A DNA stretch of 64,000 bases, from positions 1,512 to 65,511 of the forward strand of contig JBKPHT010000137.1 of the NCBI GenBank assembly GCA_046730015.1. The letters run 5' to 3'. The notes beneath the pieces are model-generated. The model was not told the origin of the DNA and did not search any database. It saw only the letters and a program-made list of their open reading frames with translations. Below are positions 6,739-46,242 of the stretch, in pieces; position 1 is the first letter of the stretch; the number at the start of each line of letters is the position of its first letter. The stretch is from Actinomycetota bacterium. GTDB taxonomy: Bacteria; Actinomycetota; Acidimicrobiia; Acidimicrobiales; VFJN01. Position numbers and translations under genes: made by a program.

Positions 6739-7518
6739 GTGGAGGGATATCGCCCCAGCACCTACGGCGACCGCTTCGCCGACGTGTACGACGACTGGTA
6801 CGGCGACGTGTCCGACACCGGCGCCACCGTCGACCGGGTGGCCGCCCTCGCCACGGAGGCCGGCAGCGGCCCGGTGCTGGAGCTGGGGGCCGGCAGCGGC
6901 CGGCTGGCCGTGCCCCTGGCCGAGCGCGGGCTCACCGTGTGGGCCCTCGACGCGTCGGCGGCCATGCTCGCCCGGCTGGCGGCGCGGCCGGGCGGCGACC
7001 GGGTCGTGGCGGTGCAGGGCGACATGGCCGACCTCGACCTCGGCCCCGGCGCGCCGCCCGGCTTCGCCGTCGTGCTGTGCGCGTTCAACACCTTGTTCAA
7101 CCTCACCGACACCGACGCGCAGCGCCGCTGCCTCACCCGGGCCGGCCGGGTGTTGGCCCCGGGCGGCCGGCTGGTGGTCGAGGCGTTCGTCCCGCCCCCG
7201 GGCGGCGAGGACGAGGCGGCGGTCGGCGCCGTGGAGCCCCGCCACATCGGCCTGGACGAGGTGGTGCTCACCGTCAGCCGGCTCGACCCGGCGGCCAGGA
7301 CGGTCACGGGCCAGCACGTCCAGATCACCGAGAGCGGCGTCCGGTTGCGGCCGTGGGTGCTCCACTACGCCGCCCCCGACGAGCTCGACGCGCTGGCCGC
7401 CGAGGCTGGATTGCACCTGGTCGAACGCCACGCGGGGTGGCGCGGCGAGCCGTTCACGGCGTCGTCGCCCGTCCACGTCTCGACCTACGCCCGGGGGGGT
7501 CGAGCCGCCGCGCGGTGA
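6739..7518 (+). CDS. class I SAM-dependent methyltransferase
   Basis: SAM-binding motif I VLELGAGSGRLAVPLAERG, with post-I and motif II spacing. GTG start at 6739, within track ORF 6070..7518. Confidence 0.85.
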   Translation: MEGYRPSTYGDRFADVYDDWYGDVSDTGATVDRVAALATEAGSGPVLELGAGSGRLAVPLAERGLTVWALDASAAMLARLAARPGGDRVVAVQGDMADLDLGPGAPPGFAVVLCAFNTLFNLTDTDAQRRCLTRAGRVLAPGGRLVVEAFVPPPGGEDEAAVGAVEPRHIGLDEVVLTVSRLDPAARTVTGQHVQITESGVRLRPWVLHYAAPDELDALAAEAGLHLVERHAGWRGEPFTASSPVHVSTYARGGRAAAR

Positions 7519-7588
7519 CACGCACCGTGCCGCCCGGCGGAAGTTGTACGTTGACGCGGTGTCCACGATCGTCGCCGATCGCTCGCCA

Positions 7589-7686
7589 GTGAGCGAGCGC
7601 AGCGAGCGAACCATGAGAACAGTGCCCTACCCGGCACGCAGTGCCGATGGCTCACTGCGTGCATCCCGAAGGGTGCACCAGTGAGC
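7589..7686 (+). repeat. 92-nt start-codon-associated structured element, copy A (includes duplicated GTGAGC junctions)
   Basis: GTGAGC at 7589 and again at 7681 (the galT start) lie exactly 92 nt apart. The conserved block TGAGCGAGCGCAGCGAGCGAACC is shared with the copy at 45405-45502. Hairpin CGGCAC-GCA-GTGCCG is at 7632-7646, and a 37-nt hairpin at 7650-7686 pairs the galT SD and GTG. Confidence 0.8.
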
Positions 7687-8676
7687 CAACTTCGGCTGAA
7701 CCCTCTGACCGGGCGCTGGGTCGGGGTCGCCGCCGGCCGAGAGCACCGGCCCGGCGACCTGGTGTCCCGCCAGCTCCCGGTCGAGTCCGACCCCAACCGG
7801 CCGTGCCCGTTCTGCCCGGGCCACGAGGAAGCCACCCCGCCCGCGCTGGAGACCTACGGCCGGCACGGCGAGTGGGTCGTGCGGGTCGTCCTCAACCGGT
7901 ATCCGGCGTTCGACGGCGACGAGCCGCTGAAGGTCCACAACCTCGGCCCGGTGTTCACCCAGGCGGCGGCCAGCGGCATCCACGAGGTGCTGGTCTTCTC
8001 GCCCGAGCACGAGGCGGGGTGGGCCGACCTCGACGACGCCCAGGCGGCCGTGACGATGGCCGCCATCCGCGACCGGATGGAGGACCACGCTCGCCGCCCG
8101 TCGATCCGGTACACCCAGGTGATCGTCAACTCGGGGCGGGAGGCCGGGGCCAGCCTGGAGCACCCCCACGGCCAGCTGCTCGGCATCCCGTTCGTGCCTG
8201 GGGAGATCGCCGAGGAAGAGGCCGGGTTCCGCCGCTTCGAGGGCTCGTGCCTGCTGTGCACCACGCTCGAGGCCGAGGAGGCGGCCGGCCACCGGCTCGT
8301 CTACGTCGACGACCGGGTGGTGGTCGTGTGCCCCTTCTGGTCGGGGGCGCCGTACGAGATGCTGGTGCTGCCCCGCCACCACGAGGTCCACGTCACCGAC
8401 GCCGCACCGCCGGACGTGGCCGCGGTGGGCCGGGCGATCCGCACCGCGCTGGCCCGGCTGCGGGTTTGTCTGGGCGACGTGTCCTACAACCTGATGTTCC
8501 ACACCGCACCGCACCGCCACGCGGGGCCGTTCCACTGGCACGTCCACGTCATCCCGCGGGTGACCAGCGTGGCAGGGTTCGAGCAGGGCACCGGCGTGAT
8601 GATCGACATCGTGGCCCCCGAGGTGGCGGCCCGGCACCTCGCCGTCCCGGCCGACGCCCCGGCGGCGGCGGGCTAG
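7681..8676 (+). CDS. galT: galactose-1-phosphate uridylyltransferase (HIT-type)
   Basis: Zinc motif CPFCPGHE, active-site HPHGQL, and a second half-domain. 331 aa, GTG start. Confidence 0.9.
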   Translation: MSQLRLNPLTGRWVGVAAGREHRPGDLVSRQLPVESDPNRPCPFCPGHEEATPPALETYGRHGEWVVRVVLNRYPAFDGDEPLKVHNLGPVFTQAAASGIHEVLVFSPEHEAGWADLDDAQAAVTMAAIRDRMEDHARRPSIRYTQVIVNSGREAGASLEHPHGQLLGIPFVPGEIAEEEAGFRRFEGSCLLCTTLEAEEAAGHRLVYVDDRVVVVCPFWSGAPYEMLVLPRHHEVHVTDAAPPDVAAVGRAIRTALARLRVCLGDVSYNLMFHTAPHRHAGPFHWHVHVIPRVTSVAGFEQGTGVMIDIVAPEVAARHLAVPADAPAAAG

Positions 8677-20097: not shown

Positions 20098-20733
20098 ATG
20101 GGAGGCGTGGCGCCCTCCGCACCCCCACCGTCGACCGACGGGGGCCATCCGGCCCGCAAGCCGCGCCGGGGCCTGATCGGGACGGTGCTCGACGGCGCCG
20201 GCGGCGTGGTGCGGGCGGTGGCCAGCGAGGCTGCGCCCGGCGTCGTCGACGCGGTCGACGTCGACGAGGTGGTCCGCCGCATCGACATCGACGCGGTGCT
20301 GGAGCGCCTCGACCTCGACGAGCTCCTGGCGCGCGTGGACATGGACCGGGTCCTGGCCCGCATCGACGTCGAGGCCCTGCTGGCCCGCATCGACGTCAAC
20401 CACCTGCTCGACCGGGTGGACGTGAACGCGGTGGTGGCCCGGGTCGACCTCGACGCCGCCCTCGCCCGCGTCGACGTCGACGCGGTGATCCGCCGGGTGG
20501 ACGTCAACGAGGTGGTCGGGCGGGTCGACGTCGACGCGCTGGTGGCCCGCACCGAGCTGGGCAGCGTCGTGGCCCGCTCGACGGCGGGCGTCGTGACCGG
20601 CGCGGTCGACCTGCTCCGGAGCCTGGGCGTCGGGCTCGACCTGTTCATCCACCGGTGGATGAACAGGCTGCTCCGGCGCTCTGCGGAGGCCGGCCCCGGC
20701 GGGCCGCCCCTGCTGGTGGAGGAGAGGTCGTGA
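20098..20733 (+). CDS. hypothetical protein with eleven tandem 9-aa repeats (hDhDxhhxR)
   Basis: In-frame periodic sequence VDVDEVVRR IDIDAVLER LDLDELLAR ... VDVDALVAR, followed by a basic amphipathic C-terminus. Its stop overlaps the GTG of the next gene. Confidence 0.75.
   Translation: MGGVAPSAPPPSTDGGHPARKPRRGLIGTVLDGAGGVVRAVASEAAPGVVDAVDVDEVVRRIDIDAVLERLDLDELLARVDMDRVLARIDVEALLARIDVNHLLDRVDVNAVVARVDLDAALARVDVDAVIRRVDVNEVVGRVDVDALVARTELGSVVARSTAGVVTGAVDLLRSLGVGLDLFIHRWMNRLLRRSAEAGPGGPPLLVEERS
20254..20550 (+). repeat. 27-nt tandem coding repeat x11
   Basis: Eleven consecutive 27-nt units (gtcgacgtcgacgaggtggtccgccgc and variants) with no indels. They are mirrored as a spurious antisense ORF at 20062..20652. 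Confidence 0.9.
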
Positions 20734-45107: not shown

Positions 45108-45410
45108 TCAGGCCAGGGCCCGGACCACGGCGGTCGTGGCCGCCGCCCCGAAGACGACGACCACGAACGGTGCCCGTCGCCAGGTCGCCAGCAGGGCCAC
45201 CGCCAGCCCGGCGGCGCGGGCGTCGAGCACCAGGCGGCGGTCGCCGGCGAACGTGTTGACCACCACCAGCGCCGGAAGGAGGGCGGCCGGGAGCAGGGCC
45301 GCCACGCGGAGGAACGTCCCGCCCATCGCCCGGGGGCCGAGCGCCACCAGGCCGAGCGCCTTCAGCCCGTAGGCCGCCGCCCCCAGCCCGACGATGGCCA
45401 GCCAGCTCAT
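45108..45410 (-). CDS. azlD: AzlD family branched-chain amino acid transport protein
   Basis: 100-aa hydrophobic protein MSWLAIVGLGAAAYGLKALG... downstream of azlC. ATG 45410 is preferred because the longer track ORF reads into the repeat element. Confidence 0.85.
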   Translation of the reverse strand: MSWLAIVGLGAAAYGLKALGLVALGPRAMGGTFLRVAALLPAALLPALVVVNTFAGDRRLVLDARAAGLAVALLATWRRAPFVVVVFGAAATTAVVRALA

Positions 45411-45502
45411 CGGTGCTCCCCTTCGGGGAGCACCGATGAGCAATCGGCCCTCCGGGCCGAGCAACGCACTGTGCTTACGGTTCGCTCGCTGCGCTCGCTC
45501 AT
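45405..45502 (-). repeat. 92-nt start-codon-associated structured element, copy B (between azlC stop and azlD start)
   Basis: ATGAGC at 45502 (overlapping the azlC TGA) and at 45410 (the azlD start) lie exactly 92 nt apart. It has the same conserved 5' block as copy A. Hairpin CGGCCC-GGA-GGGCCG is present, and a perfect 17-bp hairpin (plus strand 45405-45441) pairs the azlD SD and ATG. The 22-nt CCGAAGGGGAGCACCGATGAGC is directly repeated. Confidence 0.85.
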
Positions 45503-46242
45503 CGGTGCTCCCCTTCGGCCTCCGTCTCCGTCCGGGGCGCGAACAGGAGCGCGGGGACGACGCCGAGGGCGGCGGCCACGATCGGCAGACCGGCCGGCGC
45601 CAGGGGGATCAGCACCAGCGAGATCGCCGCCCCGGCCGCGGCCGCCACCCGCCCGGCCCGGTCCCGCAGGTGCGGCACCACCAGCGCGACATATCCGGCC
45701 GGGAAGGCGGCGTCGAGGCCCCAGGCCTCCGGGTCGCCGATCGCCCCGCCCGCCACCGCCCCCGCCAGGGTGCCGAGGTTCCAGCACACGAACACGGCGA
45801 CGCCGGTGGCCCAGAAGGCCGCTTCCCCGAGGCGCCGACCGGGCTGGGCCGTGGCCATCGCCGTCGTCTCGTCCAGCACGAACTGGGCCGCCACCATCCG
45901 CCGGGACAGGCGGCGGCCCAGGTGGATCGGGGCCAAGGCCAGCCCGTAGGCGGCGTTGCGGGCCGCCAGCAGCAGCGCCGAGCCGACCGCCGAGGCCAGC
46001 GAGCCACCGCTGGCCAGCACGCCCACGACCGCGAACTGGCTGGCCCCGGTGAACACCAGCACCGACATGGCGCAGGCCTGCGGGGCCGTGAGCCCGGCCG
46101 TCCTGGCCAGCACCCCGAACGACACCCCGAACACCCCGACGGCCGCCCCCAGCACCCACGAGTCCCGCCGGACCTTGGCGAGCCGTGGGTCGCCGGCGGG
46201 CTCGCGAAAGAAGGTGACGCGCCGTCGACCATCCCTCCTCAC
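45499..46242 (-). CDS. azlC: AzlC family branched-chain amino acid transport protein
   Basis: Polytopic membrane protein with the FGVLA...G...A..MS.LVF.GASQF motif. Confidence 0.88.
   Translation of the reverse strand: MRRDGRRRVTFFREPAGDPRLAKVRRDSWVLGAAVGVFGVSFGVLARTAGLTAPQACAMSVLVFTGASQFAVVGVLASGGSLASAVGSALLLAARNAAYGLALAPIHLGRRLSRRMVAAQFVLDETTAMATAQPGRRLGEAAFWATGVAVFVCWNLGTLAGAVAGGAIGDPEAWGLDAAFPAGYVALVVPHLRDRAGRVAAAAGAAISLVLIPLAPAGLPIVAAALGVVPALLFAPRTETEAEGEHR

Follow-up and report, generated by a model that had tools for sequence, protein, structure and literature searches.

A 92-nucleotide repeat at actinobacterial start codons with the architecture of mycobacterial interspersed repetitive units

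We analyzed a 64,000-nucleotide (nt) stretch of contig JBKPHT010000137.1 from an Actinomycetota bacterium (VFJN01), hereafter the window, in which a structured 92-nt sequence sits on the start codons of two genes, galT and azlD. Judging from sequence, both are probably copies of a non-autonomous selfish repeat of the type of the interspersed repetitive units known from mycobacteria (MIRUs), tolerated by its hosts through termination-reinitiation coupling. The evidence comes from the two window copies, from copies and empty sites in other genomes (loci fetched from relatives and other genomes carry L-numbers), and from comparison with known elements. Coordinates are window positions unless an L-number precedes them.

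Two copies of the element in the window

A first-pass annotation of the window, made from the sequence alone, had described two copies of the element, and its account of their coordinates, 92-nt spacing, common 23-nt block, common ACAGTGC and GCCGAT motifs, and hairpins is correct throughout. Each copy runs from one RTGAGC hexamer (R being A or G) to a second one, and its features are as follows.

7589-7686, plus strand: copy 1, whole; RTGAGC to RTGAGC spacing exactly 92 nt
7589-7594, plus strand: copy 1 5' junction GTGAGC, the putative native galT start and Ser codon and target site, which now opens the mini-ORF (short open reading frame, ORF)
7590-7612, plus strand: copy 1 invariant 5' module TGAGCGAGCGCAGCGAGCGAACC, exact 23-mer
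7589-7684, plus strand: copy 1 mini-ORF of 31 codons, VSERSERTMRTVPYPARSADGSLRASRRVHQ, whose TGA at 7682-7684 overlaps the galT GTG at 7681
7632-7646, plus strand: copy 1 small hairpin CGGCAC-GCA-GTGCCG, from fold and covariation
7650-7686, plus strand: copy 1 terminal hairpin GCTCACTGCGTGCATCCC-GAA-GGGTGCACCAGTGAGC, from fold, covariation and recurrence at other loci
7681-8676, plus strand: galT (galactose-1-phosphate uridylyltransferase), 3' of copy 1; Pfam PF01087 GalP_UDP_transf, E = 2.5e-18; GC content at third codon positions (GC3) = 0.96
45502-45405, minus strand: copy 2, whole; RTGAGC to RTGAGC spacing exactly 92 nt
45497-45502, minus strand: copy 2 5' junction ATGAGC, the native azlC/azlD ATGA overlap, which now opens the mini-ORF
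45479-45501, minus strand: copy 2 invariant 5' module, exact match to the 23-mer
45407-45502, minus strand: copy 2 mini-ORF of 31 codons, MSERSERTVSTVRCSARRADCSSVLPEGEHR, whose TGA at 45409-45407 overlaps the azlD ATG at 45410-45408
45445-45459, minus strand: copy 2 small hairpin CGGCCC-GGA-GGGCCG, from fold and covariation
45405-45441, minus strand: copy 2 terminal hairpin GCTCATCGGTGCTCCCC-GAA-GGGGAGCACCGATGAGC, a perfect 17-bp stem with the Shine-Dalgarno (SD) sequence and azlD codons 1 and 2
45497-45518, minus strand: 22-nt repeat of the copy 2 3' end within the azlC 3' end, CCGAAGGGGAGCACCGATGAGC, atypical of the family
45108-45410, minus strand: azlD, 3' of copy 2; Pfam PF05437 AzlD, E = 1.5e-10
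45499-46242, minus strand: azlC, 5' of copy 2; Pfam PF03591, E = 1.9e-31

The terminal hairpin is 37 nt long in both copies; that of copy 1 holds the element's SD sequence (GAAGGG) and the GTG-AGC that now serves as galT codons 1 and 2. The second RTG of each copy had been called the real start of the downstream gene, which the Pfam matches to GalP_UDP_transf and AzlD bear out, and the described 31-codon frame, ending in GTGA or ATGA on the downstream start, is present in both copies. In copy 2 the azlC stop (TGA, 45501-45499) lies inside the first ATGA.

The 23-mer TGAGCGAGCGCAGCGAGCGAACC matches the window twice, against 0.01 matches expected from shuffles, and an nhmmer search of the window with the family profile finds copies 1 and 2 only. 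Copy 1 (z = -2.9) and copy 2 (z = -7.8) both fold into RNA structures more stable than those of shuffled sequences. The finding as such is real, well beyond what chance would give.

Copies in other genomes

The 23-mer, which had been singled out as a query for further copies, matches exactly at no fewer than, and thus at least, 119 loci in a scan covering one genome per species. The hosts of these listed loci are all Actinomycetota, and include the actinomycetes Micromonospora, Nocardia, Nocardioides, Streptomyces, Kitasatospora and Pseudonocardia and, in the class Acidimicrobiia, Iamia, Microthrixaceae and Ilumatobacteraceae; no Mycobacterium is among the at least 119 matches listed. A second scan, aimed at the 92-nt form, added at least 97 further loci, nearly all in metagenome-assembled genomes (MAGs) of Acidimicrobiales, a group to which the genes most closely related to those of the window belong as well. 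Among the loci listed for the 92-nt form, one MAG alone (MFD09267.bin.2.303) accounts for more than 20. From these, nhmmer yielded 107 full-length copies.

The architecture of the window copies recurs across this sample. The element starts with the invariant module GAGCGCAGCGAGCGAACC directly after RTGAGC, and its length is exactly 98 nt, counting both RTGAGC hexamers, in 87 of 107 full-length copies. In 107 of 127 copies the mini-ORF that begins at the upstream RTG has ATGA or GTGA at its end; among the same 127, mini-ORF length has one peak at 26-27 codons, with 51 copies, and another at 31 codons, with 15, and 70 copies close with the hexamer RTGAGC. In 72 of 85 copies an ORF of 80 codons or more comes after the element.

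Copies also occur in tandem, with 92-nt arrays in L191, L207, L212, L226, L238 and L244 (and none in the window itself) and head-to-tail arrays with a 74-96-nt period in L059, L100, L116, L117 and L005. Each genome carries its own sequence variant or subfamily, which argues for amplification within genomes. We infer from these sequences that copies multiply inside genomes and also expand in tandem. Searches of plasmid collections yielded pieces of the 5' module alone, on three plasmids of actinobacteria and two of haloarchaea, and phage collections returned nothing meaningful.

Some matches fall outside the expected hosts. Two contigs (L231 and L242) of a MAG labeled 'Acidobacteria bacterium SM_70_13' hold the 92-nt element of the Acidimicrobiales type, which suggests a mislabeled or contaminated bin, or horizontal transfer. 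The haloarchaeal matches are an exact 24-nt match to the 5' module on a Natrinema plasmid (NZ_CP082248.1; L290 1501-1524) and an exact 21-nt match on a Halobaculum plasmid (NZ_CP058530.1; L291 1501-1521). Both are intergenic and have neither the mini-ORF nor the RTGA architecture, and they may reflect chance in low-complexity GC-rich sequence or an unrelated repeat.

Empty sites and the target of insertion

The galT and azlC-azlD junctions of relatives had been proposed as the places where empty sites should lie, and both kinds were found, in L260 and in 13 relatives, respectively. In the closest MAG (L260; GalT 88% identical over 85 residues) the galT start reads gtgtccATGAGCCAGCTT (also given as ATGAGCCAG); this same MAG holds more than 20 copies of the element elsewhere among the loci listed. 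The azlC-azlD junction of the 13 relatives (AzlC 59-77% identical; L152-L156, L158, L160, L161, L263-L266 and L269) reads ...RTGAGCTGG...; the stop of azlC overlaps the start of azlD there, and the element is missing. The closest AzlC relatives in the genome and metagenome collections are 73-77% identical to that of the window, and no database record matches the exact AzlD protein of the window. Because the empty sites read this way, RTG-AGC is the native beginning of both host genes, and the element has its place between their second and third codons. Together with the unrelated genes found downstream of other copies, the empty orthologous sites uphold the proposal that the element is an insertion and not a gene-specific leader.

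The azlC-azlD junction is filled in two further sequences. The metagenome contig L268 has a diverged full copy there (~1891-1990) with a perfect 15-bp hairpin. In L157 (~2191-2240), at the same locus, the 3' half of the element has been lost through a deletion bounded by two TGGCCG repeats, and an ATGAGC inside the element now gives AzlD an N-terminal extension (MSTVRY...).

The only target signature or direct repeat at filled sites is TGAGC. Duplication that extends past TGAGC has the same distribution as in a null in which the 5' flanks were exchanged (shuffled) between copies and compared with the element 3' end. We also considered that the copies might be remnants of a duplicated gene fragment, which the first-pass annotation had named as a reading that would undo its own; copy number, unrelated flanks and empty sites rule this out.

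The empty galT site offers one further observation. A 20-mer upstream of galT, GTACGTTGACGCGGTGTCCA, is identical at window positions 7546-7565 and in L260 (7690-7709), and the two sequences differ between this 20-mer and the galT start codon. It contains TTGACG and is a possible promoter or operator.

Origin of the terminal hairpin

The 3' 37 nt of the element are kept in about 100 copies before unrelated genes, including those for nitrile hydratase alpha, a flavin adenine dinucleotide (FAD) monooxygenase, a DEAD-box helicase, an extracytoplasmic function (ECF) sigma factor, TetR regulators and an RskA anti-sigma factor. Two main 3' variants occur, GCTCACTGCGTGCATCCC-GAA-GGGTGCACCAGTGAGC and GCTCATTGCGCGCATCCC-GAA-GGGTGCGCCAATGAGC. 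The 37-mer of copy 1 precedes unrelated genes in identical form in L114, L185, L188, L204, L209, L251 and others, and GGGTGCACCAGTGAGC is the usual 3' end of the element at many unrelated loci. The A or G of the 3' RTG tracks the element sublineage, whereas that of the 5' RTG does not. Since hairpin, SD sequence and RTGAGC recur before unrelated genes, we take them to be part of the element and not copied from the target.

Among its options, the first-pass annotation had raised an insertion that makes an inverted copy of its target; one arm of the hairpin would then derive from the target in each case. We regard this as highly improbable. It draws on copy 2, whose 3' arm equals 17 nt (plus TGAGC) of the 5' flank and whose 5' arm is the perfect complement; on the last 8 nt before the azlC stop, ACCGATGA, which the azlC end has in common with the empty site of L156, so that the flank could be native; and on L039, where the flank loosely resembles its arm. 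Against this, the hairpin is conserved element sequence at unrelated loci, and the match between flank and arm follows the null except at tandem or partial partners and in two to three other cases. The exceptions are tandem arrays, arrays with an internally deleted first unit (L193, L080, L096 and L215), L190, and copy 2 itself. In L190 the flank shows the canonical arm of the element, which is the opposite direction of copying, and partly deleted tandem partners are common enough to offer a simpler origin. What had looked like complementarity tailored to each target is ordinary stem covariation between element sublineages, and the 'target-matched hairpin' is mostly an artefact of comparing two copies only.

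Of the two target duplications proposed, 9 nt for copy 1 and 22 nt for copy 2, only the second exceeds chance. The 9-nt duplication is at chance level, because matches between flank and 3' end follow the null; copy 2 has a flank match of 17 nt (plus TGAGC), to which L190 and L193 are comparable cases. The hairpin variant of copy 2, GGGGAGCACCG, is unique among the roughly 100 copies. The flank repeat probably goes back to a tandem partner that was deleted, or to local conversion. Between a deleted-partner remnant and remodeling of the hairpin toward a native flank, the former seems slightly more likely; the closest relative found is only 77% identical.

Constraint on reading frame and RNA structure

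The mini-ORF frame is under constraint across the family. Element length is 2 mod 3 in 99 of 107 copies, including 12 of the 20 length variants, and synonymous changes make up 295 of 742 in the mini-ORF frame versus 84 of 712 and 140 of 744 in the other two frames. One reading of this excess is that the mini-ORF codes for a small protein with a function (the SERSERT peptide) and that the repeats are a family of small genes; the variable sites of the 5' module, which are third codon positions (CGC/CGA/CGG, AGC/AGT), would suit it as well. We give this reading very little credence. The subfamilies have only the first 8 residues in common, the nucleotides of the module are conserved far beyond what the peptide needs, and the frame is broken in 8 of 107 full-length copies. 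The peptides are short and rich in Arg and Ser, and searches of Pfam and NCBIfam with them gave no match.

The two hairpins are also conserved as structures. Scored on one alignment (A1), 94.9% of cells in the two hairpins are paired, versus 88.6% in shuffles and 32-39% with slid partners, and nine pairs show double-sided changes. The pair formed by columns 48 and 54 of the small hairpin covaries (CG 46, AU 33, GC 2). The conserved hairpins are imperfect, with two constant bulged bases. In the 74-89-nt subfamilies of other actinomycetes, perfect pairing between the 9-mer that ends at the start codon and the interior of the copy it belongs to is seen in 16% of cases, against 2.4% for the 9-mer of another copy; Nocardia pairings include CATGAC/GTCATG, CACAAC/GTTGTG, CACGAT/ATCGTG and CACGCC/GGCGTG. 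As pairing within a copy exceeds pairing between copies, a start codon held in a stem appears to be a feature of the whole family. The two mutually exclusive folds of the first-pass annotation find no such backing: in most copies only the 6-nt RTGAGC could form the alternative pairing, and minimum-energy folds computed with flanks do not favor it.

Two conserved, covarying hairpins, one of which occludes an SD sequence and start codon, could also point to a cis-regulatory RNA (a leader, attenuator or riboswitch-like switch) that evolved to control the downstream genes. An excess of G.U over A.C pairs (37 versus 16) is a weak hint of constraint on the sense strand and leans the same way. Such an origin is nonetheless very unlikely given that the downstream genes are functionally unrelated, that orthologous sites are empty in relatives, that tandem arrays occur and that the sequence subfamily differs by genome. 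The best-conserved part of the element is the unstructured 23-mer, and Rfam gave 0 matches at gathering thresholds and chance-level matches only at relaxed thresholds.

Genomic context and a proposed mechanism of tolerance

Copies typically sit where translation already starts or passes from one gene to the next. The upstream coding frame, judged by GC3, ends exactly at the 5' TGA in 73 of 97 copies, and an SD-like tetramer lies 5' of the first RTG in 53% of copies versus 18% of random RTGs. These upstream-frame and SD data indicate that a native initiation region or stop-start overlap is kept before the mini-ORF. Copy 2 has this typical context and copy 1 is atypical. GC3 rules out that a gene upstream of copy 1 ends on its GTGA; the methyltransferase gene upstream ends at 7518, 70 nt 5' of copy 1. 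A promoter and terminator scan around copy 1 gave no match.

The element sits after codon 2 and before codon 3 of genes whose native beginning is RTG-AGC, and its own SD sequence and RTG-AGC give the interrupted gene its first two codons back. Through its length, a 31-codon ORF stays open from the native start to a TGA overlapping the new start (RTGA), and the last 37 nt fold into a hairpin over the new SD sequence and start codon. In the mechanism that we propose, ribosomes would start at the native codon under native control, or arrive from the upstream gene through the ATGA overlap; they would read the mini-ORF, melt the hairpin, stop at the UGA within RUGA and reinitiate on the host gene. 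The insertion would be tolerated because the host gene stays expressed and operon-coupled.

Termination-reinitiation coupling of this kind is reviewed in PMC12548453. The RTGA ends and the conservation of frame, kept across more than 200 copies, fit translational coupling, as do the stop-start overlaps at both ends of the element, and the coupling mini-ORF that the first-pass annotation listed among its options is the one we favor. The arrangement resembles engineered bicistronic designs and natural coupling upstream ORFs, in which a short leader cistron ends on the gene start and delivers ribosomes through local structure. It differs from them in being carried by a repeat and copied to many genes.

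Comparison with MIRUs and other known elements

The first-pass annotation recognized no known class that the element would fit. Its architecture, however, is that of the MIRUs (Supply et al., 1997, Mol Microbiol 26:991; our account of them is taken from PMC12548453 and PMC3184786). These are short repeats that enter at start codons, with an internal ORF coupled to the gene at -4 spacing (PMC12548453), and they show filled and empty sites and short direct repeats (PMC3184786). As a reference we used the senX3-regX3 spacer of M. tuberculosis (L151), reached through the RegX3 protein. This spacer contains three units of 77 bp; every junction reads ATGA, and each end carries a repeat of ATGACC.

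The likeness extends to most aspects of organization. MIRUs are units of 40-100 bp (92 nt for the window element) in tens of dispersed copies and also in tandem arrays. They occupy gene starts or intercistronic positions in the same orientation as the genes, and their short ORF starts on the stop codon of the gene before it and stops on the start codon of the gene after it (ATGA). At the 5' junction the opening hexamer of the downstream gene appears a second time (ATGACC in senX3-regX3, RTGAGC here), and orthologous sites are found both filled and empty, with a short direct repeat, which here is TGAGC.

The sequences themselves are far apart. The 98-nt hidden Markov model (HMM) gave only a non-significant result on the senX3-regX3 MIRUs, an HMM of dimers of the Nocardia subfamily gave no match at this one MIRU locus compared, and only the motif GAGCG(T/C)AGCGA is common to both. 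The unit is 92 nt here and 77 nt in senX3-regX3, and the host belongs to Acidimicrobiales, in another class, rather than to the genus Mycobacterium. Unlike MIRUs, the element has a 23-nt 5' module invariant across the phylum and a strong terminal hairpin that buries the SD sequence and start codon. Because sequence similarity is non-significant, we stop short of calling the element a strict-sense MIRU; by analogy of architecture, it would work like one. A search of genome contigs with the MIRU-4 primer GCGCGAGAGCCCGAACTGC, verified in the literature, gave chance matches in other phyla only, M. tuberculosis being apparently absent or masked there.

At the same M. tuberculosis locus, we noticed that RegX3 database entries P0001-P0004 and P0006 are 245-347 amino acids (aa) long, compared with a protein of 227 aa to which they are 100% identical over the full query. 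The gene call of P0003 begins inside the MIRU spacer (L151 2001) rather than at the ATGACC start (~2088). The other long RegX3 entries probably carry the same N-terminal over-extension through MIRU ORFs.

Other classes of small repeats fit less well. The first-pass annotation had set aside both a classical insertion sequence (IS) or MITE (a miniature transposable element with inverted repeats) and a riboswitch; the unrelated downstream genes and the Rfam result likewise speak against the latter. The element has no terminal inverted repeats: its ends are direct repeats (RTGAGC ... RTGAGC) and its inverted repeats are internal, and it is flanked by a fixed TGAGC rather than a variable target duplication. 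With MITEs and in-frame palindromic repeats (Correia, enterobacterial repetitive intergenic consensus (ERIC) and Rickettsia palindromic elements) it has in common that it is small, non-autonomous, multi-copy, structured and sparing of function. It differs from in-frame palindromic repeats as a separate coupled cistron, which stays outside the host protein except in decayed copies.

A more specific proposal for how the element moves is that it derives from palindrome-associated transposable elements (PATEs) of the IS200/IS605 type, or is a relative of repetitive extragenic palindromes (REPs) and their REP-associated tyrosine transposases (RAYTs), and is moved in trans by an HUH Y1 transposase to sites 3' of TGAGC. 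It concerns mobility only and is compatible with a MIRU-type repeat tolerated through coupling. Elements of the IS200/IS605 family enter on the 3' side of a fixed sequence of 4-5 nt and make no target duplication, and the fixed TGAGC would fit such an insertion; the element also ends in this same pentanucleotide, and like PATEs and REPs it is short and bears conserved imperfect hairpins, with their constant bulges. The left and right ends of IS200/IS605 elements resemble one another, whereas the two hairpins here are unlike, the 5' end is unstructured and the element lies strictly at start codons. No transposase gene flanked by these ends was found in the fetched loci, and the strict co-orientation with genes is better explained by selection. 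We consider this proposal unlikely.

Several points weigh against a MIRU-type element tolerated through coupling, which we still prefer. The whole-family HMM (nhmmer against L151) scored best on the MIRU, with an E-value of only 1.4. The 5' GTG of copy 1 has no recognizable upstream SD sequence or sigma-70-type consensus promoter. That the mini-ORF is translated and that the host gene depends on it are points that we infer from the sequences. An autonomous partner or mobilizing enzyme was not found in the fetched loci, where long ORFs starting with the 5' module are ordinary host genes. The stem covariation largely separates two sublineages of the element, so there are fewer independent events than the cell counts imply, and template switching in quasi-palindromes could yield compensated stems without selection. 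Finally, the 22-nt flank duplication of copy 2 and its unique perfect hairpin need an extra event.

A text search for this sequence family, including MIRU-like actinobacterial repeats, found no description in a corpus that leaves out most subscription journals. We regard the family as a new and very widespread form of a kind of element already known, with the architecture of MIRUs but far larger in size and much wider in distribution.

A possible phylum-wide superfamily

More tentatively, and with more doubt than conviction, we suggest that these elements may form a phylum-wide superfamily of start-codon-targeting mini-cistrons with a common RTGAGC-GAGCGCAGCGAGCGAACC module and a common design, of which the mycobacterial MIRUs would be a diverged branch and whose module would be the recognition site of a conserved mobilization machinery. 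The design, if this is true, consists of an SD sequence and start codon of the element's own, a start codon held in a stem, and an ORF ending on the start codon. The identity of the module between Actinomycetes and Acidimicrobiia would then mark the site that the machinery recognizes, and phylogenetic profiling across hundreds of genomes could be used to find that machinery.

For decades MIRUs have served in the typing of M. tuberculosis; where they come from, how they spread and how they affect expression are long-standing questions. How MIRU-type elements move and are tolerated should be easier to attack with the present family, whose 5' module does not vary, whose empty sites are clear, whose target (RTG-AGC) is defined and whose copies bring a start codon of their own as replacement. 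Its numbers give comparative power to ask which enzyme, of the host or of a mobile element, is found together with the repeat, whether start-codon insertions become tolerable through termination-reinitiation coupling, and how often decayed copies add N-terminal extensions to proteins.

Effects on gene annotation and other observations

In actinobacterial genomes and MAGs of high GC content, the element accounts for many doubtful start calls and for spurious ORFs, whether short or extended. Proteins that start with MSERSERT or MSERS are encoded in L093 (ParB), L105 (RibBA), L068, L014 (nitrile hydratase alpha), L226 (FAD monooxygenase) and L098, and these starts come from whole or truncated copies fused in frame. 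Such fusions indicate that decayed copies extend ordinary proteins at the N-terminus and can mislead start annotation.

Elsewhere in the window, positions 20253-20555 hold a 27-nt tandem repeat of ~11 copies with 70% matches and super-periods of 54 and 81 nt. Being a multiple of 3, the 27-nt period would suit a repeat of 9 residues, provided that the region is coding.

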